DNA of 48,848 nucleotides from NCBI GenBank assembly GCA_964602275.1, contig CAZRQF010000001.1, positions 1 to 48,848 of the forward strand, written 5' to 3'. The position numbers were made by a program, and so were the translations under genes. Each line of letters opens with the position of its first letter. The stretch's first letter is position 1. The notes beneath the pieces were generated by a model. It did not search any database. It saw only the letters and a list, made by a program, of their open reading frames with translations, and was not told the origin of the DNA. Positions 35,151 through 44,412 of this stretch are shown here, piece after piece. The stretch comes from an uncultured Eubacteriales bacterium. GTDB lineage: Bacteria; Bacillota; Clostridia; TANB77; UBA1234.

Positions 35151-35179
35151 GTGTCTAAAAAATAGAAGGAGTGTGTAAT

Positions 35180-37141
35180 ATGGAAGAAATACAAAAAAAC
35201 AAAATGGCGGAAACGCCAATGAAAAAATTATTATTAAAAATGGGTTTACCAATGATTATATCAATGGTGCTACAAGCATTATATAATGTTGTTGATAGTA
35301 TGTTTGTAGCTAATATGAAAGAAGACGGAGCACTCGCAAATCAAGCACTAACCATTGCTTTTCCAATTCAAATTTTGATTATAGCAATAGGTGTTGGAAC
35401 TGGGATAGGGTTAAATGCATTATTGTCAAAAAGTTTAGGAGAAAAAGATCATGAAAAAGTAAATAAGATAGCAGGGAACGGAATATTTTTAAGTGTTTGC
35501 ATATTTTTAGTATTTTTGCTATTTGGTGTTTTTGGCACTGAATGGTTTATTTCATTGTTTGCAGGTGGAAATACAAAAGTAATATCTATGGGAACGACCT
35601 ACCTAAAAATTTGTACTTGTTTATCATTAGGTTCAATTGGATATACGGTATACGAAAGATTTTTGCAATCGACTGGAAAAACGATGTTGTCTACAATTGC
35701 ACAAATATCAGGTGCGGTTGCAAATATTGTTTTGGACTATATATTTATATTCCCACTAGAAATGGGAGTAGCTGGTGCAGCTTGGGCAACAGTTATTGGT
35801 CAATTTATTTCTTTATTTGTTGCAATGTTTTTTCACTATACTAAAAATAAAGAAATAAATGGCAATATAAAATATATTAAACCAGAAATTAATTTAATTA
35901 AAGGAATTTACCAAATAGGAATTTCGGCTGCGATTATGCAGGCATTACTTTCGGTTATGATGGCAGGTATGAATGCGATACTTGGAATGGCAAAAGCAGA
36001 TGCTACAATTCTTGTTGGTTCATTTGGAATTTACTATAAAATACAACAAATAGCATTGTTTTCTGCGTTTGGGTTATCTAATACTATAATATCAATATTA
36101 TCATTTAATTATGGAATGAAAGATAAGGAAAGAATAGATGCTTGTATTAAATATGGAATTTTAGATACTATGATTGTTTCATTTATTTTAACAATTGTTT
36201 TTGAAATTTTTGCTAAACCATTATCAAGTCTATTTGCTTTATCAGAAGGCACAAGTAAAGAAATTGTAGAACTTTGTACTGTTTCGCTTCGAATAGCAAG
36301 TATAGGCTTTGTATTTATGGGATTTTCTGTTGCTGTGCAAGGCATATTACAATCACTTGGTTATGCGGTAAGACCTTTAATAATATCATTATTAAGATTA
36401 GTTATATTCGTATTTCCACTAGCATATTTCTTCACATTATCTGATAATGTAACAAATATTGTTTGGTGGACATTTCCAATAGCAGAAGCGTTAACAGCTA
36501 TAGTATCTATATTTATATTAAAAAGAACATACAAAGAAAAAGTAGCAATATTAGAAGAAAACGAAAAGAAAAAAGATGTAAACGAGAAGCTAATCATATC
36601 AATATCAAGACAACATGGAACAGGTGGAAAAGAAATCGCAAGAAAAGTAGCCGAAAAGTTAAGCATGAAATTTTATGATAAAGAAGAAATTAAGAAATTT
36701 GCAATTGAAAATTCTTTAATTGAAAATAAATATAGTGATGATGAACTTTATAATTTTTATTTATCATTAGATGCCGAAAAAGATTCTATGATAAAACAAG
36801 CAGAAACAATAAAGATGATTGCATCAAAAAATGACTGTGTAATTGTTGGTAGATGTGCAGATTATATATTAAAAGATAATCCAAATTTAATAAAAATATT
36901 TTTATATGCTCCAATGGAATATAGGATAAATAAAGTGCAAGAAATGTATAAAGATAGTTATGATAATGCTAAAAAACATATAATCAAATCAGATAAATCA
37001 AGAACTTCATATTATGAGATAATTGCAAACAAACAATGGGGCGATAAAGAAAACTATGACCTATGTATTAATTGTGAAATTGGTAATGATAAAATAGTTA
37101 ATACTATATGTGAATATATAAAAAATATACTTGCACATTAA
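35180..37141 (+). CDS. MATE efflux transporter fused to a cytidylate-kinase-like (Cytidylate_kin2) domain
   Basis: About 450 aa form a 12-TM MATE/NorM-like region (MGLPMIISMVLQALYNVVDSMFV). This continues in frame, from about nt 36585, with IISISRQHGTGGKEIARKVAEKLSMKFYDKE...GRCADYIL. ATG 35180 follows AAGGAG. Confidence 0.8.
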   Translation: MEEIQKNKMAETPMKKLLLKMGLPMIISMVLQALYNVVDSMFVANMKEDGALANQALTIAFPIQILIIAIGVGTGIGLNALLSKSLGEKDHEKVNKIAGNGIFLSVCIFLVFLLFGVFGTEWFISLFAGGNTKVISMGTTYLKICTCLSLGSIGYTVYERFLQSTGKTMLSTIAQISGAVANIVLDYIFIFPLEMGVAGAAWATVIGQFISLFVAMFFHYTKNKEINGNIKYIKPEINLIKGIYQIGISAAIMQALLSVMMAGMNAILGMAKADATILVGSFGIYYKIQQIALFSAFGLSNTIISILSFNYGMKDKERIDACIKYGILDTMIVSFILTIVFEIFAKPLSSLFALSEGTSKEIVELCTVSLRIASIGFVFMGFSVAVQGILQSLGYAVRPLIISLLRLVIFVFPLAYFFTLSDNVTNIVWWTFPIAEALTAIVSIFILKRTYKEKVAILEENEKKKDVNEKLIISISRQHGTGGKEIARKVAEKLSMKFYDKEEIKKFAIENSLIENKYSDDELYNFYLSLDAEKDSMIKQAETIKMIASKNDCVIVGRCADYILKDNPNLIKIFLYAPMEYRINKVQEMYKDSYDNAKKHIIKSDKSRTSYYEIIANKQWGDKENYDLCINCEIGNDKIVNTICEYIKNILAH

Positions 37142-38056: not shown

Positions 38057-38161
38057 ATGAAAAATTTAATTGTTTATTATTCTTATGAGGGAAATACAGA
38101 AGAGTTGGTAAAAGGAATGAAAAAGAAAGTTAATAATTGGCTTAAAGATAATTTAAAATAG
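38057..38161 (+). pseudogene. internally deleted flavodoxin remnant (34 codons)
   Basis: MKNLIVYYSYEGNTEELVKG is a typical flavodoxin N-terminus. It is joined directly to a short tail, NNWLKDNLK*. Confidence 0.5.
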
Positions 38162-38188
38162 AAGTTGAAGTTTAAATATCAAGATATA

Positions 38189-38203
38189 CATTGCGTGACC
38201 AAC
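38189..38203. repeat. 15-nt motif CATTGCGTGACCAAC, copy 1
   Basis: Identical to 40291-40305. It lies 4 nt upstream of the -35 TTGAAA (38208-38213); TATAAT is at 38230-38235. Confidence 0.85.
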
Positions 38204-38283
38204 TAGCTTGAAAAATACCTGATTTAGCGTATAATTGCATAAAAAGTATGTAAAAACCTACTTTTTTATAGATTATATGAAAA

Positions 38284-39171
38284 ATGGGTGTAAGTATGGA
38301 AGTTTTTTTAAAAGAATTTAGACTTTTAACACAAGATAGGGAAGACAGTATTTGTAATGATAACACTATGGTTAATAGAATGGTTTTCAACAATTGTTAT
38401 CCTTTACGAATTTTTTGCAACAAGAAATTTGAAAGAATACAATTTGAACCAATTACAATTTTTTATGGCGGAAATGGTTCAGGGAAGACGACATTACTAA
38501 ATATGATTGCAGATAAAATACACGCACAAAGGAGAAACAAAGATAACAAGGGAATTTTGTTTGACTTATATGTTAAAAATACATATGCTGTTATGCGAAA
38601 GACAGACTTAGAAAATAAAGAATATATTTCAAGTGACGATGTTTTTGACTATTTGTTAGATGTTAGAGCGATAAATTCCGGAGTGAATAGAAGAAAACAG
38701 GAATTAGTAGATGAATATTTAAAGTATAAGTATAGTAAGGAGATTATAAGAAATCCGTTAAAAGATTATGAAAAACTATCAAAAATAAATTCTGCTAGAT
38801 CAAATTCGAATAGGCAATATATGAGAAAACAATTGCGAAATAATAATATAATTCAATTTTCGAATGGCGAATCTGCACTTGATTTTTGGCAAGATAAAAT
38901 AGAAAAAAATGGCGTGTATATATTAGATGAACCTGAAAACAGTTTAGCTGCAGATAATGTACTAAAATTAAAAAAATTCATTGAAGATTCTGCAAGGTTT
39001 TATAATTGCCAATTTATAATTTCAACGCATTCGCCTTTTTTGCTAGCACTTCAAGAGGCTAAAATATATGATTTAGATACAAATCCTGTTGTGGCAAGAC
39101 CTTGGTATGAGCTAGAGAATATGAAAGTGTATTATCAATTTTTTAAAGAAAATGAAAAGATGTTTTTGTAA
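38284..39171 (+). CDS. soluble ABC-type (COG3910/AAA_21-like) ATPase with helical insertion
   Basis: Walker A GGNGSGKTTLL, signature-like FSNGESAL, Walker B VYILDEPENSL and H-loop ISTHSPFLL. A charged, helical-looking insert of about 110 aa lies between Walker A and the signature. There is no TM or nuclease domain. ATG 38296 is an alternative start. Confidence 0.75.
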   Translation: MGVSMEVFLKEFRLLTQDREDSICNDNTMVNRMVFNNCYPLRIFCNKKFERIQFEPITIFYGGNGSGKTTLLNMIADKIHAQRRNKDNKGILFDLYVKNTYAVMRKTDLENKEYISSDDVFDYLLDVRAINSGVNRRKQELVDEYLKYKYSKEIIRNPLKDYEKLSKINSARSNSNRQYMRKQLRNNNIIQFSNGESALDFWQDKIEKNGVYILDEPENSLAADNVLKLKKFIEDSARFYNCQFIISTHSPFLLALQEAKIYDLDTNPVVARPWYELENMKVYYQFFKENEKMFL

Positions 39172-39267
39172 AAAGAATAAACAAATGAATTAGTGATAGC
39201 GAAAATTCAATATATATTTTGCTAATATTTTATGATAAAAAACTAATGATAATGGAGGATACTGTCT

Positions 39268-40269
39268 ATGGAATTGTACGAGAAAAATGGAAACATATTA
39301 TACATATTAAATGTGTTAAAAAAATATAGTGATGAAGAACATATGCTTTCAACTATCGAGATACAAAGAAAAGTGAAAGAAATATATGATGTAGAAATTG
39401 ATCCTAGAACTATTAGAAGAAATATAAATCTATTAAAATATAAATTGAATTACGATATAAGTACGAGAGATGATAACGGTAAGGGATATTATATAAATAG
39501 AGATCCAGAAACTGATTTTGAGCCTGGAGAAGTGCGAGCTATAATTGATAATTTTAGTTATGCTAATTACATAGTACCAACTATTGCAAAAAATATAATA
39601 AAAAAGTGTAAAAACATACAAACAGTTTATGAAAATGAAAAGATAAAAGATTATCAAATATATGCAAATAATTCAAAGACAGAAAATGTTGAGGTTATAA
39701 AAAATATCGAAGATATTTCAAATGCTATCTATATGCATAAGAAAATACAATTTGAATATTGGAAATATGCAATAGTAGAGGATAAAATAGAAAAGAAAAT
39801 TATAAATACACCAATAGTTTCTCCTTATGCGATAGTTTATAAAAAGCAAGAATTTTATATGATAGCAATAAAAGAAGGAAATAAAGAGTTTTATAATTAC
39901 AGAATAGATAGAATAAAAAATATCAGTATATTAAATGAAAATATAACGATTAAGAAAAAGAAACATGAAATTCAAGAGTTTGCTGAGTCTTCAACAGAAA
40001 TGTTTGGAGGTCCAAAAGAAGAGATAGAAGTAATATGTCATGTGTTGTTATTAGATACAATTATAGAAACATTTGGTAGAAATGTTTCTATAAGCAAAAT
40101 ACCAAATGATGATGAATATTTTAGATTAACTGTAAATACAAGCATTCTAGGTTTTAAAATGTGGGCTATGAGAAATATAGACTTGGTAGAGGTAAAAAAG
40201 CCTATTTCACTACGACAAGAAATGAAAAAGATTGTAGAAGAAGCTACAAAAAAATATTGCGAAAAATAG
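39268..40269 (+). CDS. HTH-WYL-WCX transcriptional regulator (CapW/BrxR-like architecture)
   Basis: N-terminal winged HTH (ILYILNVLKKYSDEEHMLSTIEIQRKV...RTIRRNINLL), a central WYL-type beta domain (IQFEYWKY...SPYAIVYKKQEFYMIAIKE..FYNYRIDRIKNISIL) and a C-terminal extension. GGAGG RBS. Confidence 0.75.
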   Translation: MELYEKNGNILYILNVLKKYSDEEHMLSTIEIQRKVKEIYDVEIDPRTIRRNINLLKYKLNYDISTRDDNGKGYYINRDPETDFEPGEVRAIIDNFSYANYIVPTIAKNIIKKCKNIQTVYENEKIKDYQIYANNSKTENVEVIKNIEDISNAIYMHKKIQFEYWKYAIVEDKIEKKIINTPIVSPYAIVYKKQEFYMIAIKEGNKEFYNYRIDRIKNISILNENITIKKKKHEIQEFAESSTEMFGGPKEEIEVICHVLLLDTIIETFGRNVSISKIPNDDEYFRLTVNTSILGFKMWAMRNIDLVEVKKPISLRQEMKKIVEEATKKYCEK

Positions 40270-40290
40270 ATATTAAGTTGTATGAATAAG

Positions 40291-40305
40291 CATTGCGTGA
40301 CCAAC
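40291..40305. repeat. 15-nt motif CATTGCGTGACCAAC, copy 2
   Basis: Identical to 38189-38203. It lies 4 nt upstream of TTTAAA (40310-40315); an extended -10 TGTATAAT is at 40331-40338. Confidence 0.85.
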
Positions 40306-40312
40306 GATATTT

Positions 40313-40360
40313 AAATCTTCGTTATTATAATGTATAATTACATTAAAGTAACGAAGATTT
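40313..40360 (+). promoter_or_regulatory. long hairpin (terminator-like) enclosing -10-like elements
   Basis: Outer 12-bp stem aaatcttcgtta (40313-40324) with taacgaagattt (40349-40360). Inner 7-bp stem taatgta with tacatta. The 3' end runs into TTTTT. TATAAT sequences lie in the interior at 40326 and 40333. Confidence 0.55.
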
Positions 40361-40383
40361 TTATATGAAAGGAGAAAAACAAG

Positions 40384-41010
40384 ATGCTATTAAATATACT
40401 TCCAAATGCAGAATTATCAATTGATTTGAATAAAAAGCTTAGAGGCTATTTGCTAAGTTTAAAAATCAAAAATAAATATTTTAATTATGATGCGTATTCA
40501 AAAATTTACTATGAAAATATAATTTCTATAATTGAGAATATTGAAAACATGATATTTAGTAAATACAAATCTATTTATGATGTTTGCATAAACAAAATAA
40601 AATTTTCTTTTGACTCAAACGAAACCTTAATTAGAATTTGTATAAACATTAGTGATGAGCAACAATATTCTGTAATATTAAATAGAGATAATGTTATAGT
40701 ATTGTATAATTATTTAGTAAACTATATTAAAACATTTAATAAAATTCAAAATTTTGATTTTAATAAAAAGTTTGTTTATGTTGAAGTAAGATATTGTGAT
40801 GTATATAGTTCAAAATTTTATTCTTATATATCTGAAAATAAAAATATAAAGCCTTGGGATATAGTTTATGTAGATAGAGCGGGTACAAAATGTTTAGCGG
40901 TTGTTGTGAATAAGTCAGAATATTATTACGAGAAAGTGCCGTATCCCGTTTTAGAAACAAAAAGAGTTATAAAAATAGTGACAAGGTCACAAGAGTACAA
41001 AAATGTATGA
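40384..41010 (+). CDS. hypothetical protein (208 aa), unknown family
   Basis: Good RBS (AAAGGAG). The C-terminal ~70 aa (FVYVEVRY...YSYISENKNIKPWDIVYVDRAGTKCLAVVV...YPVLETKRVIKIV) resemble a small beta-barrel seen in PSP1/DUF5839-like proteins, from memory only. The last 13 codons lie in the 67-bp repeat. Confidence 0.6.
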   Translation: MLLNILPNAELSIDLNKKLRGYLLSLKIKNKYFNYDAYSKIYYENIISIIENIENMIFSKYKSIYDVCINKIKFSFDSNETLIRICINISDEQQYSVILNRDNVIVLYNYLVNYIKTFNKIQNFDFNKKFVYVEVRYCDVYSSKFYSYISENKNIKPWDIVYVDRAGTKCLAVVVNKSEYYYEKVPYPVLETKRVIKIVTRSQEYKNV

Positions 41011-41033
41011 AATTAATTCATACATTTTTGTAT
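40967..41033. repeat. 67-bp direct repeat, left copy (3' end of gene 40384 + hairpin)
   Basis: 64/67 identical to 44346-44412 by hand alignment (mismatches at 40983, 41022 and 41030). It contains a 14-bp-stem hairpin, caaaaatgtatgaa (40998-41011) with ttcatacatttttg (41017-41030). Confidence 0.9.
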
Positions 41034-41237
41034 TATATGGTATTTTTTATAAGGCAAAAATTAAATCGTTGGCTTTCAGATAAGCTGTTAAAATCAGATT
41101 GCAATACTAAAGCACTCGATAGAAAAAATGCAAACCAAACATTATGTAAATTTATAAAAAACTTGGATGTTTGCTGGATTTTGTCGTTATGCTATGATAA
41201 TATAGTGTTCAGAGAAATTAGAATGAGAGGTAAAATT

Positions 41238-42140
41238 ATGAAAAGCAAAGAAAAAGTCAGACCATTTGTAAAATGGGCTGGTGGCAAAGGAAGCTTAATT
41301 CCTCAGATTACGAAATATTATCCAGAAGATTTGAAAACAGGTATTATAGAAAAATATATTGAGCCATTTGTTGGTGGTGGTGCTGTGTTAATAGATATAC
41401 TACAAAAATATGATGTTAAAGAAGTGTATGCATACGATACAAATAGAGATTTAATAAATGCATATAATGTTATAAAGACGGATGTTGATGATTTAATAAA
41501 TAAATTAAAAAAGTATGAGGATGAGTATATTTCTTTAGAAACGGAAGAAAGAAAAAAATACTATTATAATGTTAGAAGTGAATATAATTCATCTGAGATA
41601 AAAGAGGGGAAAATATCAACAAAGCGTGCTGCAGAGTTTATATTTTTAAACAGGACATGCTTTAATGGATTATATAGAGTTAATCAAAGTGGAGATTTTA
41701 ATGTGCCAATGGGTAAATATAAAAATCCAACTATTTGTGATAAAAAAAATCTTGAAGCTTTATCAAAATTAATTAAAAATGTCAATTTTATTTGTGAAGA
41801 TTATCTAACTACAGAAGCAATAGTAGATAAAAATACTTTTGTATATTTTGATCCACCATATAGACCATTAAGTGTTACTTCTGGATTTACTTCATATACA
41901 AAAGATGATTTTGACGATGAAGACCAGAGGCGATTAGCATCATATTTTAGAACTTTAGATACAAAAGATGCTAAATTAATGTTAAGTAATTCAAATCCTA
42001 AAAATGTTAATGAAGAGGATACATTCTTTGATGACATTTATAATGGATTTAATATAAACGAATTACAAGCAAATAGAATGATAAATGCTAAAGCTGATAA
42101 AAGAGGAAAAATATCAGAATTATTAATAATAAATTATTAG
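41238..42140 (+). CDS. dpnM: Dam-like N6-adenine DNA methyltransferase (DpnM-type, GATC)
   Basis: D12-class motifs VKWAGGKGSL, EPFVGGGAV and FVYFDPPYRPL. ATG 41238 follows GAGAGG. The track ORF start at 41007 is an upstream extension running through the repeat. Confidence 0.88.
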   Translation: MKSKEKVRPFVKWAGGKGSLIPQITKYYPEDLKTGIIEKYIEPFVGGGAVLIDILQKYDVKEVYAYDTNRDLINAYNVIKTDVDDLINKLKKYEDEYISLETEERKKYYYNVRSEYNSSEIKEGKISTKRAAEFIFLNRTCFNGLYRVNQSGDFNVPMGKYKNPTICDKKNLEALSKLIKNVNFICEDYLTTEAIVDKNTFVYFDPPYRPLSVTSGFTSYTKDDFDDEDQRRLASYFRTLDTKDAKLMLSNSNPKNVNEEDTFFDDIYNGFNINELQANRMINAKADKRGKISELLIINY

Positions 42141-42148
42141 GAGAAATA

Positions 42149-42931
42149 ATGTACAAAGGAAATTATTATTATGATGAAAAAGACTTTAAGTTAATAAATG
42201 ACGATATTTTTGAGGCTACAAAACATATGCAAGAAAAAACATTTGATATGATATTTGCAGATCCACCATACTTTTTATCTAATGATGGAATTACATGTAG
42301 CGGTGGAAAGATGGTTAGCGTAAATAAAGGCGATTGGGATAAAGAATTATCACTTCAAGAAAAACACAAATTTAATCGTAAATGGATAAAAGAATGTTAT
42401 AGATTATTAAAAGATGAGGGGACGATTTGGGTAAGTGGAACATTGCATAATATTTACTCTATAGGAATGGCTTTAGAAGAAGAAGGATTTAAAATTATAA
42501 ACAATATAACATGGCAAAAAACAAATCCGCCTCCAAATCTTTCTTGTAAAACTTTTACTCATTCAACTGAAACTGTATTGTGGGCTAGAAAAGATATAAA
42601 AAATGTGAAGTATAAATTTAATTATAAGCTAATGAAACAACTTAATAATAATAAGCAGATGAAAGATGTATGGACAACAAGCTTAACTAAGCCATCTGAA
42701 AAGAGGTTTGGAAAGCATCCAACACAAAAACCATTAGAACTATTAGAAAAAGTTATATTAGCTTCAACAAATGAGAATGACTTAATATTAGATCCTTTTA
42801 GCGGAAGTGGAACAACAGGTATTGCGGCTAAAATGTTACATAGAAATTATATAGGTATAGATAAAGAAAAAGAATATTTAGATATATCGATAAAAAGATA
42901 TATGAATGTATCTGGAGGTTTATATGAGTAA
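42149..42931 (+). CDS. dpnA: beta-class N6/N4 DNA methyltransferase (DpnA-type)
   Basis: N-terminal FADPPYF and C-terminal DPFSGSGTTG (N6_N4_Mtase order). It is the second methylase of a DpnII-type cassette. Confidence 0.88.
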   Translation: MYKGNYYYDEKDFKLINDDIFEATKHMQEKTFDMIFADPPYFLSNDGITCSGGKMVSVNKGDWDKELSLQEKHKFNRKWIKECYRLLKDEGTIWVSGTLHNIYSIGMALEEEGFKIINNITWQKTNPPPNLSCKTFTHSTETVLWARKDIKNVKYKFNYKLMKQLNNNKQMKDVWTTSLTKPSEKRFGKHPTQKPLELLEKVILASTNENDLILDPFSGSGTTGIAAKMLHRNYIGIDKEKEYLDISIKRYMNVSGGLYE

Positions 42932-43775
42932 AAGAAATTTTGAGGAATGGTTAGCTAATTTTAGAAGTAGTATAGCAAATTATAAATACTATGTCGATTT
43001 TGACATTGTATATGAAAATGTAGAAAAATTTAAAGTTGAATTGAATATTTTAAATAGCTTAATTGGTTCTAAAACTATCGAGAAAGATTTTATAAAGGTT
43101 ATTACAGAATACCCAAAAACATTGAAATGTGTTCCGTTTTTATTGGCAGTAAGGCAATTGGAAATTTTAGCTCAAGATGAAGATAAGTTATATATATATA
43201 AATTTGGACATATGAATTATGCTCCAGAGCAATATGCGATTTTAATGAGAGAAACAGGATTATTCGAATTACTTGAAAATCATTTAGTTAGTAATCTAAT
43301 AGACTATGCACTGGGCGTTGAAGTTGGGTTAAATTCAAATGGAAGAAAGAACCGTGGCGGACATTTGATGGAAGATTTAGTTGAAACTTTTATAAAAAAG
43401 GCCGGTTTCAAAGAGTATTATAAAGAAATGTATTTGACCGATATAGAAAAGAAGTGGGGAATAGATTTATCTAAAATTTCTGGGGAAGGAACATCAACTA
43501 AAAGATTTGATTTTGTTATAAAGACAGAAAATATGATTTATGGCATAGAAACCAATTTTTATGCTTCTGGTGGTTCAAAATTAAATGAAACAGCAAGAAG
43601 TTACGAGAAAATTGCAAGAGATGCAACTGAAATTGAAGGCTTTAAGTTTGTTTGGATAACAGATGGACAAGGATGGTATACTGCTAAAAGAAATTTGAAG
43701 GAAACATTTGATGTCCTTGATGACTTATATTGCCTAAACGAACTTGAAGATGGCATATTTAAAAAATTAATATAA
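42924..43775 (+). CDS. dpnB: DpnII/MboI-family type II restriction endonuclease (GATC)
   Basis: NFEEWL, NSLIGSK, HLVSNLIDYALGVEVGLNSNGRKNRGG, KRFDFVIK, NFYASGGSKLNETARSY and WITDGQGW match my recollection of pneumococcal DpnII along the full length. ATG 42924 follows GGAGG. Confidence 0.85.
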   Translation: MSKRNFEEWLANFRSSIANYKYYVDFDIVYENVEKFKVELNILNSLIGSKTIEKDFIKVITEYPKTLKCVPFLLAVRQLEILAQDEDKLYIYKFGHMNYAPEQYAILMRETGLFELLENHLVSNLIDYALGVEVGLNSNGRKNRGGHLMEDLVETFIKKAGFKEYYKEMYLTDIEKKWGIDLSKISGEGTSTKRFDFVIKTENMIYGIETNFYASGGSKLNETARSYEKIARDATEIEGFKFVWITDGQGWYTAKRNLKETFDVLDDLYCLNELEDGIFKKLI

Positions 43776-43814
43776 AACCATATAGAAAAATTTTCTAAAG
43801 ACAGGTGAATATAA

Positions 43815-44351
43815 ATGAAATATTTAGTAATATCAGATATACATGGTTCTCAATATTATGCTAATAAAATAAATGAAATATATCAAAAAGAAAATCCTGA
43901 TAAAATAATTCTTTTGGGAGATTTATATTATCATGGACCAAGAAATTCATTGCCGAAGGAATATAATCCGATGGAAGTAGCGAAAATATTGAACGGTTTA
44001 AAAGAAAATATTTTATGTGTAAAAGGAAATTGTGATGCTGAAGTTGATGAAATGATTTCAGAATTTGATTTTAATGATAATATATGTATGAATATTAAAG
44101 GGTTAGAGTTTTTATTTACACATGGACATAAATACAACCTTGATAATACACCAGAAAATGTAGATGTTTTGGTGTATGGACATTTACATACAGGATTTAT
44201 AAAAGAAAAAGATGGAGTTATATATGTTAATGCAGGTTCAATTTCATTACCTAAAAATGGTACAAAAAACAGTTATTTAATAATAGATGAAAATAAAATC
44301 ATTTTAAAAGATATAGATGGAAATATATTAGATGAAAAAGTGTTTTTATAA
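43815..44351 (+). CDS. YfcE/YsnB-like metallophosphoesterase (calcineurin-like)
   Basis: MPP motifs ISDIHGS, LGDLYYHGPRN, GNCD, THGH and GHLH. Confidence 0.8.
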   Translation: MKYLVISDIHGSQYYANKINEIYQKENPDKIILLGDLYYHGPRNSLPKEYNPMEVAKILNGLKENILCVKGNCDAEVDEMISEFDFNDNICMNIKGLEFLFTHGHKYNLDNTPENVDVLVYGHLHTGFIKEKDGVIYVNAGSISLPKNGTKNSYLIIDENKIILKDIDGNILDEKVFL

Positions 44352-44412
44352 AAATAGTGACGAGGTCACAAGAGTACAAAAATGTATGAAATTAATTCAT
44401 GCATTTTTTTAT
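44346..44412. repeat. 67-bp direct repeat, right copy
   Basis: It retains an orphan KIVTRSQEYKNV* coding tail and the hairpin, here followed by a T7 run (44404-44410). It overlaps the stop of the phosphoesterase gene. Confidence 0.9.

Follow-up and report, generated by a model that had tools for sequence, protein, structure and literature searches.

Several regulators built from a winged helix-turn-helix (wHTH), a WYL, and a WCX domain have been described. DriD of Caulobacter crescentus is a 327-residue activator of dispersed DNA-damage genes (didA, recA, and bapE) that also regulates its own gene; its operator, a 20-bp palindrome, lies over the −35 region, with constant spacing to the −10 element, in promoters devoid of a −35 hexamer. 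PafBC, a heterodimer or fusion acting by sigma adaptation at an asymmetric promoter motif, and DdaA of Moraxellaceae, which recognizes CGWCA-N5-TGWCG and governs a genome-wide, conserved regulon, are also WYL activators, with regulons that include defense genes such as restriction-modification (R-M) and CRISPR. BrxR, with more than one operator per island (R-BOX1 and R-BOX2), is a repressor that binds inverted repeats between the −10 element and the start codon. The ligand of CapW is single-stranded DNA (ssDNA), which is sensed by both the activator and the repressor branches of the WYL family.

Here we analyze three consecutive genes on the forward strand of a 48.8-kb stretch of DNA (contig CAZRQF010000001.1, positions 1 to 48,848; hereafter the window) from an uncultured Eubacteriales bacterium. 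They encode a stand-alone ABC-type ATPase (ORF1), a WYL regulator (ORF2), and a 208-residue two-domain protein (ORF3). An earlier reading of the letters without database searches (the sequence-only reading) had put the trio forward as a candidate for an uncharacterized defense module; the ORF listing of the window confirms all three genes at the coordinates it gave. Our comparisons lead us to favor, with moderate confidence, a different description, in which positions 38188–41034 are the regulatory core of a small hypervariable chromosomal island where a DriD-like WYL regulator is combined with swappable cargo behind box-bearing promoters.

Conservation and Class of the WYL Regulator

A genome scan for the WYL protein recovered 52 loci, one per species, about 47 of which hold an orthologue at 59–85% identity; more than 1000 protein clusters were found at 78–84% identity. 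The hosts of the orthologues are nearly all uncultured gut or rumen Clostridia known as metagenome-assembled genomes. The flanks of the orthologues are wholly different among the ∼47 species, and none of the genes flanking the locus in the window is common to other WYL loci, so that no conserved chromosomal hotspot can be defined. By these sequence comparisons the WYL gene is the sole gene conserved across the lineage.

The protein matches the Pfam WYL domain (PF13280) with an E-value of 1.2e-9 and 38.4 bits (cut-off 21.8 bits), and PADLOC WYL models with E-values of 1.6e-24 and 1.2e-17. Near its N-terminus, the segment PRTIRRNINLL (residues 46–56) resembles, as read by eye, a DeoR/HTH_11-type recognition helix, in which R47 and T48 are invariant across the WYL clade. 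A search of the PDB with the single protein gave no match; a profile of the clade reached DriD (7U02, 7TZV, 8TP8, and 9PFQ) at E-values of 9e-7 to 4e-6 and then PafBC at 0.005, with no BrxR or CapW chain at E≤10; the identities of the matched PDB entries were checked. The DriD alignment covers the second half of the WYL domain and the WCX region. In it, Y192 of DriD is paired with the invariant Y197, and the WRLDR motif of DriD with YRIDR, whereas CapW and BrxR carry RWHVR. The sequence-only reading had recognized in this gene the wHTH-WYL-WCX architecture of defense-operon regulators and placed the locus in a defense-rich setting, both of which are supported, the architecture most clearly in its WYL domain; as to the likeness to CapW/BrxR that it proposed, profile and motif put the regulator nearer to DriD and PafBC.

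A Shared Box Upstream of Predicted Promoters

Two copies of an operator-like box, unseen by the sequence-only reading, tie the three genes together. The 15-mer CATTGCGTGACCAAC has two exact copies in the window, at 38189 and 40291, each just 5′ of a −35/−10 pair (P1 and P2, Table 1), against a chance expectation of 3e-6 per strand. Only three G+C-rich 15-mers are repeated in the window; the other two lie within a direct repeat (see below). We relied on this exact-match expectation and on comparative statistics; a shuffle estimate that allowed three mismatches was uninformative, with 14 of 100 shuffles reaching two matches. P1 is the best promoter-like site between 37 and 45.5 kb (11 of 12 positions matched), and its distance from the box equals that at other sites.

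Box statistics were compiled over 55 WYL loci comprising 914 kb (86.5% coding, 13.5% non-coding), with up to 10 kb covered on each side of the WYL gene and ORFs called by a simple longest-ORF heuristic. The core GTGACCA is present in 53 non-coding and 28 coding copies, and all 53 of the former lie on the strand of the WYL gene. With at most one mismatch, the degenerate 14-mer yields 77 non-coding sites on that strand, none in non-coding DNA of the opposite strand, and 9 in coding sequence. The 52 unique sites share the consensus RCAwTrY-GTGACCA, 6 nt, TTGaaa, 17 nt, TAtAaT with invariant spacing, which sets the box at about −55 to −42 of a sigma-70-type promoter. In five loci with a WYL protein of only 27–33% identity, the box is absent. 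We infer from this distribution that the WYL protein recognizes an asymmetric 14-nt box, RCAwTrY-GTGACCA. The first three positions of the −35 element are T in 52, T in 49, and G in 31 of the 52 sites, and part of the −35 signal may belong to the right arm of the operator.

A reverse search of the metagenome collection by DNA pattern alone returned 29 matches. Eight are accompanied by a WYL orthologue within the sequence covered, and four more have typical cargo immediately downstream or near the site; the rest, which include high-G+C contigs, are by our rough estimate at about the chance level for a database of this size.

In the spacer upstream of ORF3, compared over 11 loci, the only conserved blocks are the box, the TT of the −35 element, and the ribosome-binding site (RBS). 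At 7 of 10 ORF3 promoters (loci L014, L016, L020, L022, L025, L028, and L034), an imperfect palindrome of 29 bp is present (CACTATGtgACCaAcTaGGTtgCATAGTG in L016 is an example), with the box as its left arm, a right arm overlapping the −35 element, and a center near −40. All other promoters but one have the left arm only, both window promoters included; the ORF3 promoters of the window, L019, L104, and L033 have lost the right arm. Six of the palindrome loci (all but L014), together with L019 and L033, show no box upstream of the WYL gene in the sequence covered, and ORF3 appears from this to be the sole local target in L016, L020, L022, L025, L028, L034, L019, and L033.

Cargo of the Box Promoters

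Across the loci we counted 72 box-driven units holding ∼97 gene clusters. The commonest first genes encode a CbbX/SpoVK-like AAA+ protein (∼530 residues), a DUF2779/Cas4-like protein (∼500 residues), a family with no assignment that often occurs as tandem paralogues, ORF3, DUF3846, and GIY-YIG proteins. Box operons or their neighbors also hold an anti-phage-type dGTPase (5e-51), the PADLOC candidate PDC-S02 (4e-34), McrBC, type III R-M, Eco57I/ResIII, and D12 methyltransferases (MTases) with HNH, Macro, Fic, and kinase proteins, as well as a Y-family polymerase, PD-(D/E)XK proteins (by Pfam), metallo-beta-lactamase/RMMBL proteins, and an ADP-ribosylglycohydrolase. Type II R-M, GIY-YIG, and HNH proteins are further defense-flavored cargo, and one cargo protein (c7) is PHP-polymerase-like as read by eye.

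The order of genes is recurrent. A box-driven operon usually closes with the WYL gene, behind which comes another box, and the order box, cargo, WYL, box, cargo is found in about 20 loci, including the window (box 1, ATPase, WYL, box 2, ORF3). We found no literature specific to WYL with DUF2779 or to WYL in defense islands of Clostridia.

Two further observations concern the cargo. Members of the b2/c1 family (230–450 residues, no Pfam or PADLOC match) stand as two to three tandem paralogues behind boxes in L036, L040, L051, L063, L064, and other loci. The c6/b5 domain is found either alone or as the C-terminus of PHP-polymerase-like proteins of ∼1100 residues.

A Model for Regulation of the Island

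In the model that we propose, the regulator would bind the box 6 nt upstream of the −35 element of sigma-70-type promoters, and each species would keep different cargo operons behind such promoters. Within the window, P1 would drive the ATPase gene and then that of the regulator, which would amount to autoregulation, and P2 would drive ORF3, the transcript ending at the hairpin that follows it. Because ssDNA is the ligand of the WYL domain in DriD, PafBC, and CapW alike, we expect by analogy that the regulator would sense ssDNA arising from DNA damage, phage replication, or restriction and would then switch the box promoters. We lean slightly towards activation as the direction of that switch because of the relationship to DriD/PafBC, the single orientation and fixed register of the box, and an operator center near −40; given the quality of the −35 and −10 hexamers, de-repression is nevertheless a serious alternative. 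All of these regulatory claims are computational.

The strongest competing account, possible though doubtful, is that the regulator is a repressor in the style of BrxR and CapW, seated on the box, overlapping the −35 element, and released by ssDNA, so that strong promoters are de-repressed. Near-consensus −35/−10 elements should fire unaided, the palindromic operator overlaps the −35 element in the seven ORF3 promoters named above, and the WYL regulators of defense islands studied so far are repressors. The clade profile and the YRIDR motif nevertheless point away from BrxR and CapW, BrxR operators occupy a different part of the promoter, and more than 70 promoters retain the upstream half-site only, always oriented the same way and equally far from the −10 element, an arrangement typical of activators.

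Somewhat less probable is that the island is a LexA-independent DNA-damage regulon of the DriD/PafBC/DdaA kind, with cargo for tolerance or repair and with ORF3 as a binder of ssDNA or 3′ ends. The nearest relatives of the regulator are activators of the DNA-damage response, and DdaA controls both the damage response and defense. The cargo includes the Y-family polymerase, the PHP-polymerase-like protein, DUF2779/Cas4-like and PD-(D/E)XK nucleases, and the dGTPase, and ORF3 resembles ssDNA binders and the 3′BD of PriA (see below). Of a core damage response one would expect conserved targets, recA and uvr genes for instance; the targets here vary by species and adjoin the regulator, and many neighbors are classical defense genes.

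Several points weigh against the model of a DriD-like regulator with local, swappable cargo. The box promoters have good −35 and −10 elements, unlike DriD- and PafBC-dependent promoters, and would suit a repressor as well as an activator. The WCX model (PF25583) scores 18.7 bits, below its cut-off of 23.9 bits, yet the DriD profile alignment spans the WCX region (query residues 178–321); Pfam HTH models gave no match to the WYL protein at E≤1. R204, an ssDNA contact of DriD, aligns with a Tyr, and Y168, R176, and R178 are outside the aligned stretch. The link between the WYL protein and the box is drawn from co-occurrence and geometry, and the gene calls in the loci come from the longest-ORF heuristic. 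There may be box sites outside the flanks of up to 10 kb, and it is only the window, with 39 kb upstream of the locus, that shows the boxes to be local. Finally, the Y-family polymerase and PHP-polymerase-like cargo mean that the island may serve DNA-damage tolerance instead of, or besides, phage defense.

ORF3 and Its Linkage to the WYL Gene

ORF3 lies directly 3′ of the WYL gene in about 10 of ∼50 loci, with one gene between the two in L033. Conversely, a WYL orthologue is immediately upstream of every ORF3 homologue looked up, and for at least nine clusters of ORF3 and of WYL the longest contigs are equal in length. In the closest relatives, L104 and L019, blastn identity to the window is ∼80% over a single stretch, which begins exactly at the start codon of the WYL gene (39269) and ends at the stop codon of ORF3 (∼41000); from these limits the conserved unit is WYL-spacer-ORF3, and the ATPase gene and the R-M block are genome-specific. 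The two-domain combination of ORF3 and its strict linkage to WYL are not described in the literature that we could search.

As the sequence-only reading had said, ORF3 belongs to no family that can be named: it has no match in Pfam, PADLOC, NCBIfam, or PHROG. Together with 65 orthologues it reaches no Pfam model, with no WapI match at E≤1, and an exhaustive profile search showed the full-length family to be narrow. An AlphaFold2 (AF2) model (pLDDT 82, pTM 0.66) consists of two β4-α repeats (residues 1–115) and a C-terminal β-barrel (residues 129–200), the latter also in line with the sequence-only reading. The N-terminal domain resembles PUR repeats and Whirly/MRP proteins (PURA, WHY1, MRP1/2; probability ∼1.0, E-value 6e-3, TM-score ∼0.5), which are binders of single-stranded nucleic acids, and the barrel resembles the N-terminal 3′BD of PriA (6dcr_A: 70 residues, rmsd 2.3) and small phage proteins. 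No catalytic motif was seen in ORF3, so we predict that it is most likely a binding protein, whose target would be either single-stranded nucleic acid or 3′ ends, or a nuclease or toxin.

In another account, a polymorphic-toxin system would have left ORF3 as an orphan immunity protein, and part of the cargo would be an immunity array against interbacterial toxins. WapI confers immunity to the WapA tRNase by neutralizing it, and the two-domain module of ORF3 is found in longer proteins (P0340 and P0325) whose N-terminal domain is WapI-like (PF24716, 3e-11 and 2e-12) and which are fused to Cys_rich_CPCC; the tie of ORF3 to WapI is transitive, running through these two proteins only. The barrel by itself is present in more than 100 architectures, among them tandem repeats scored as PriA_3primeBD (PF17764, 6e-13) and fused to SUKH-1/SMI1_KNR4, and tandem paralogues of unassigned small or medium-sized proteins are common in the islands. 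We regard this account as unlikely: no LXG, Rhs, or WapA-like toxin gene was seen beside ORF3 in the ORF3 loci, the ORF3 orthologues reach no Pfam immunity model, and strict pairing with a DNA-sensing regulator is atypical of immunity genes.

The barrel is itself a widespread mobile domain of ∼75 residues (P0318–P0449), stand-alone or in tandem, with the signature GDxVxVDRAG...PYP..TK. Its fusion partners are SUKH-1, CutA1, Cys_rich_CPCC, and uncharacterized regions, and Pfam detects some copies only, as PriA_3primeBD or HAS-barrel. The domains of ORF3 had no matches in other island cargo. In L022 (11734–12678), L028, and L034, a short FtsZ/tubulin-like protein (314–318 residues; GGGTGTG and NxDxxD-type motifs by eye) directly follows ORF3.

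The Stand-Alone ATPase

ORF1 has Walker A (GGNGSGKT, residues 62–69), signature (SNGES, 193–197), Walker B (VYILDEPE, 211–218), and H-loop (STHSP, 247–251) motifs and matches the Pfam families AAA_21 (4e-14) and AAA_15 (6e-12). In its AF2 model (pLDDT 82), a helical insert of ∼90 residues interrupts an ABC-type head, and there is no further domain; the domain assignment of the sequence-only reading is right in this respect. Foldseek matched the OLD, retron PtuA, Eco8, Rad50, GajA, ABC-F, and SMC heads at similar E-values and with TM-scores of 0.3–0.4. Since all ABC/SMC heads score alike, the protein cannot be placed in OLD, Septu, or Gabija: the model confirms an ABC-type fold, and the fold does not give the family. 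PADLOC gave partial matches at ∼1e-13 and an AbiLi match at 1e-11 over the full length. Translation probably starts at 38296, giving 291 residues, because this is the length of the protein in the database and the homologue of 84% identity has the RBS GGTGTAAG as well.

The family is large, with more than 8000 clusters, all of ∼290 residues and of 55–67% identity across Clostridia, Bacilli, and Erysipelotrichia. We examined seven genomic contexts, those of homologues at 84%, 67%, 60%, 58%, 57%, and 57% identity and of a Paraclostridium plasmid copy at 46%. In all seven the ATPase gene stands alone, amid genes for GNATs, methyltransferases, FTHFS/PTS functions, a peptidase, an HD hydrolase, a NUDIX protein, and others, with no adjacent WYL gene, no ORF3, and no recurring partner. 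In L004–L006, an unrelated HTH-WYL gene of 200 codons lies ∼2.4 kb upstream of the ATPase homologue. By these comparisons the ATPase is a member of a widespread stand-alone ABC-type family that stands behind a box promoter only in this genome. Upstream of the 84%-identical homologue, positions 1–134 of L010 align with window positions 38160–38295, with homologous −35, −10, and RBS elements but a degenerate box, ATTGAATGGCTAGC against ATTGCGTGACCAAC in the window. These two sequences hint weakly either at gain of the operator by the window promoter through a few substitutions or at its loss from L010.

That the ATPase, the WYL protein, and ORF3 constitute one dedicated anti-phage system, with the ATPase or ORF3 as effector and the WYL protein as regulator, is very improbable, the lack of co-occurrence having largely refuted it. 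In its favor, all three genes run in one direction and have two copies of one box in common, an R-M system adjoins them, and the ABC/AAA_21 fold is that of the OLD, Gabija, Septu/PtuA, and AbiL ATPases. Against this, no ATPase homologue is found beside a WYL orthologue in any of 54 other loci (by mapping of window proteins and a family hidden Markov model), and the closest WYL-ORF3 relatives are without one. Conversely, the seven ATPase contexts are independent and free of such partners, even at 84% identity. No nuclease, TOPRIM, or DUF4435 partner, either fused or adjacent and kept with the ATPase, was found in this single-domain protein or the seven contexts. The trio that the sequence-only reading had put forward thus does not recur, an outcome that this reading had itself named as refuting, ORF3 being present in some 10 of 50 loci and the ATPase in none, and the defense role it gave the ATPase finds no echo in the non-defense surroundings of the homologues. 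Scans with PADLOC, NCBIfam, and PHROG, the first of which it had suggested, returned generic partial ATPase and generic WYL matches, nothing for ORF3, and no named system for the trio.

The R-M Block and the Chromosomal Setting

Features of the locus are collected in Table 1. The genes downstream of ORF3 match the DpnII restriction endonuclease (REase; PF04556, 1.8e-104), Dam-type MTase (PF02086, 8.5e-64), and N4/N6 adenine MTase (PF01555, 7.9e-67) families, and so make up a DpnII-type type II R-M system of endonuclease, Dam-type MTase, and second adenine MTase. The sequence-only reading had named this system correctly but had placed it immediately after the trio. The ORF of the Dam-type MTase opens mechanically at 41007, its Pfam match begins at residue 90, and an RBS and ATG (MKSKEK...) are present at 41238; the start is thus predicted at ∼41238, beyond the hairpin, and the 228 nt between 41007 and 41238 are probably the cassette's own promoter region.

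A 67-nt direct repeat brackets the two MTases, the REase, and a phosphoesterase. Its first copy comprises the last ∼45 nt of ORF3 and the hairpin. The R-M and phosphoesterase block is absent from L104 and L019; the genes next to ORF3 in L104 are unrelated and lie on the opposite strand, downstream of it. From this comparison the block looks like a later insertion, and the repeat like a scar left when a cassette was inserted or when the 3′ ends of two ORF3 genes recombined. Since the block is bracketed by the repeat and absent from relatives, the suggestion of the sequence-only reading that the trio is a sensor and regulatory layer for the R-M system is weakened and is unlikely to describe the ancestral relationship.

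Very improbable, too, is that the box is the site of another factor (an alternative sigma factor or an unlinked regulator) or a site of recombination or cassette exchange. Cargo shuffling does require some recombination mechanism, and the R-M insertion shows that repeats have mediated rearrangement at the locus. The box, however, is held in constant register with −35 and −10 and in a single orientation to the downstream gene, occurs only with the orthologous WYL clade, and matches the breakpoints of neither the R-M insertion nor the WYL-ORF3 unit. A repeat element or recombination site was rejected as an identity for the box, as conservation is limited to the box, −35, and −10 in fixed register.

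Table 1. Positions of the genes, predicted regulatory elements, and repeats of the locus in the window
Feature	Position	Strand	Remarks
ORF1, ABC-type ATPase	open from 38284 to 39171	+	295 aa; likely gene 38296..39171
ORF2, DriD-like wHTH-WYL-WCX regulator (by sequence comparison), conserved anchor of the locus	39268..40269	+	333 aa
ORF3, two-domain protein	40384..41010	+	208 aa
WYL-box 1 (ACATTGCGTGACCA), predicted operator of P1	38188..38201	+	fits the 14-nt consensus
P1, predicted promoter: −35 TTGAAA, 16-nt spacer, −10 TATAAT	38208..38235	+	predicted transcription start site ∼38242
WYL-box 2 (GCATTGCGTGACCA), predicted operator of P2	40290..40303	+	fits the 14-nt consensus
P2, predicted promoter: −35 TTTAAA, 17-nt spacer, −10 TATAAT	40310..40338	+	predicted transcription start site ∼40345
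Terminator-like hairpin after ORF3, 18-bp stem	40994..41034	+	ΔG −19.6 kcal/mol, z −5.3; 0/200 shuffles as stable
Direct repeat, copy 1 (ORF3 3′ end and hairpin)	40967..41033	+	64/67 identical to copy 2
Direct repeat, copy 2 (begins at phosphoesterase stop codon)	44346..44412	+	64/67 identical to copy 1
Inserted block: Dam-type MTase, N4/N6 MTase, DpnII REase, metallophosphoesterase	41238..44351	+	Pfam, PADLOC; context, outside the WYL module

The island is flanked by ordinary chromosomal genes: TruB, a tRNA methyltransferase, UDG, Ham1, BlaR1/M23, a MATE-cytidylate-kinase-like fusion, and an HXXEE protein upstream, and a flavodoxin and a small HTH protein downstream. No tRNA was found, there is no integrase among the window proteins scanned, and neither the ATPase nor the WYL protein has relatives in IMG/VR; on these grounds, a phage or mobile-element origin was rejected.

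Three side observations concern the upstream region. At 38058–38162, a 34-codon ORF (MKNLIVYYSYEGNTEELV...) resembling the N-terminus of a flavodoxin is cut off just 5′ of box 1 and might represent a scar marking the island's left border. The 13-nt string TTATATGAAAAAT is present at both 38053 and 38273. The 656-residue ORF at 35171–37141 joins a MATE efflux transporter (MatE, 2e-39) to a cytidylate-kinase-like domain (Cytidylate_kin2, 2e-42), which is an unusual fusion.

Implications

The analysis removes a false lead, in that there is no new three-gene defense system here, and it brings forward an uncharacterized WYL clade of uncultured gut and rumen Clostridia with a sharp candidate operator and more than 70 predicted target promoters, most of them ahead of uncharacterized genes. 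If the regulator binds the box, the box would offer a guilt-by-regulation route to new defense and DNA-stress genes in organisms that cannot be cultured.

More tentatively, a DriD-like, ssDNA-sensing activator may be the hub of a plug-and-play local regulon. Any gene that came to lie behind the box, or evolved one, would then be inducible by infection or DNA damage, and ORF3, whose promoters have the fullest operator, would be the primary partner, as an effector that binds ssDNA or 3′ ends or that neutralizes a nuclease. If so, the ∼100 cargo families would be a regulon-defined catalogue of new defense and damage-response genes, ranging over ORF3, the DUF2779 proteins, the CbbX-like AAA+ ATPase, the tandem b2 paralogues, and a housekeeping-type ABC ATPase, which may have been captured here via a few promoter substitutions. 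A regulator of the DriD/PafBC type, and not of the BrxR/CapW type, would, given binding to the box, be wired to a variable, defense-rich island, which would bear on how damage sensing is coupled to immunity. We found no earlier description of this arrangement in the searchable literature.

Comparison with Known Systems

Each of the components has a known counterpart from which it differs. The ATPase resembles the AAA_21/AAA_15 defense ATPases (AbiLi, PtuA of Septu and retrons, GajA, OLD, and AriA) in its ABC-type head, which bears a helical insert, but it lacks their fused or adjacent TOPRIM, HNH, or DUF4435 domain, and its family occurs in non-defense contexts. ORF3 has in common with WapI-like, PUR/Whirly, and PriA 3′BD proteins the doubled β4-α fold of its N-terminal domain and the PriA-like barrel; it differs from them in reaching no Pfam model, in a TM-score of only ∼0.5, and in having no cognate toxin nearby.

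Among solved structures, DriD is the best relative of the regulator, with a similar size (333 residues here), and the Tyr equivalent to Y192 and an R-[LI]-D-R motif are kept. The placing of the DriD operator over the −35 region, in register with the −10 element, and its autoregulation have predicted counterparts here. Identity to DriD is low, however, the HTH region is unaligned, and the box promoters have a TTGaaa element where DriD promoters have none and DriD binds a palindrome. PafBC, the second-best PDB relative, shares an asymmetric promoter motif with the predicted operator and differs in its heterodimeric or fused form and its mode of action; DdaA differs in its motif and in the breadth and conservation of its regulon. 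With BrxR and CapW the regulator shares what appears to be the same domain architecture, the variable islands with R-M, McrBC, and other defense systems, and, in the case of BrxR, the multiple operators per island. It is set apart from them by its usual place as last gene of a cargo operon, rather than first or divergent, and by a predicted operator upstream of or over the −35 element that is mostly a single half-site.

Taken together, these comparisons present the locus as a variant of the known WYL-regulated island. From BrxR/CapW islands it differs in regulator clade, operator geometry, and gene order, and from the regulons of DriD, PafBC, and DdaA in that its predicted targets are local and swappable.

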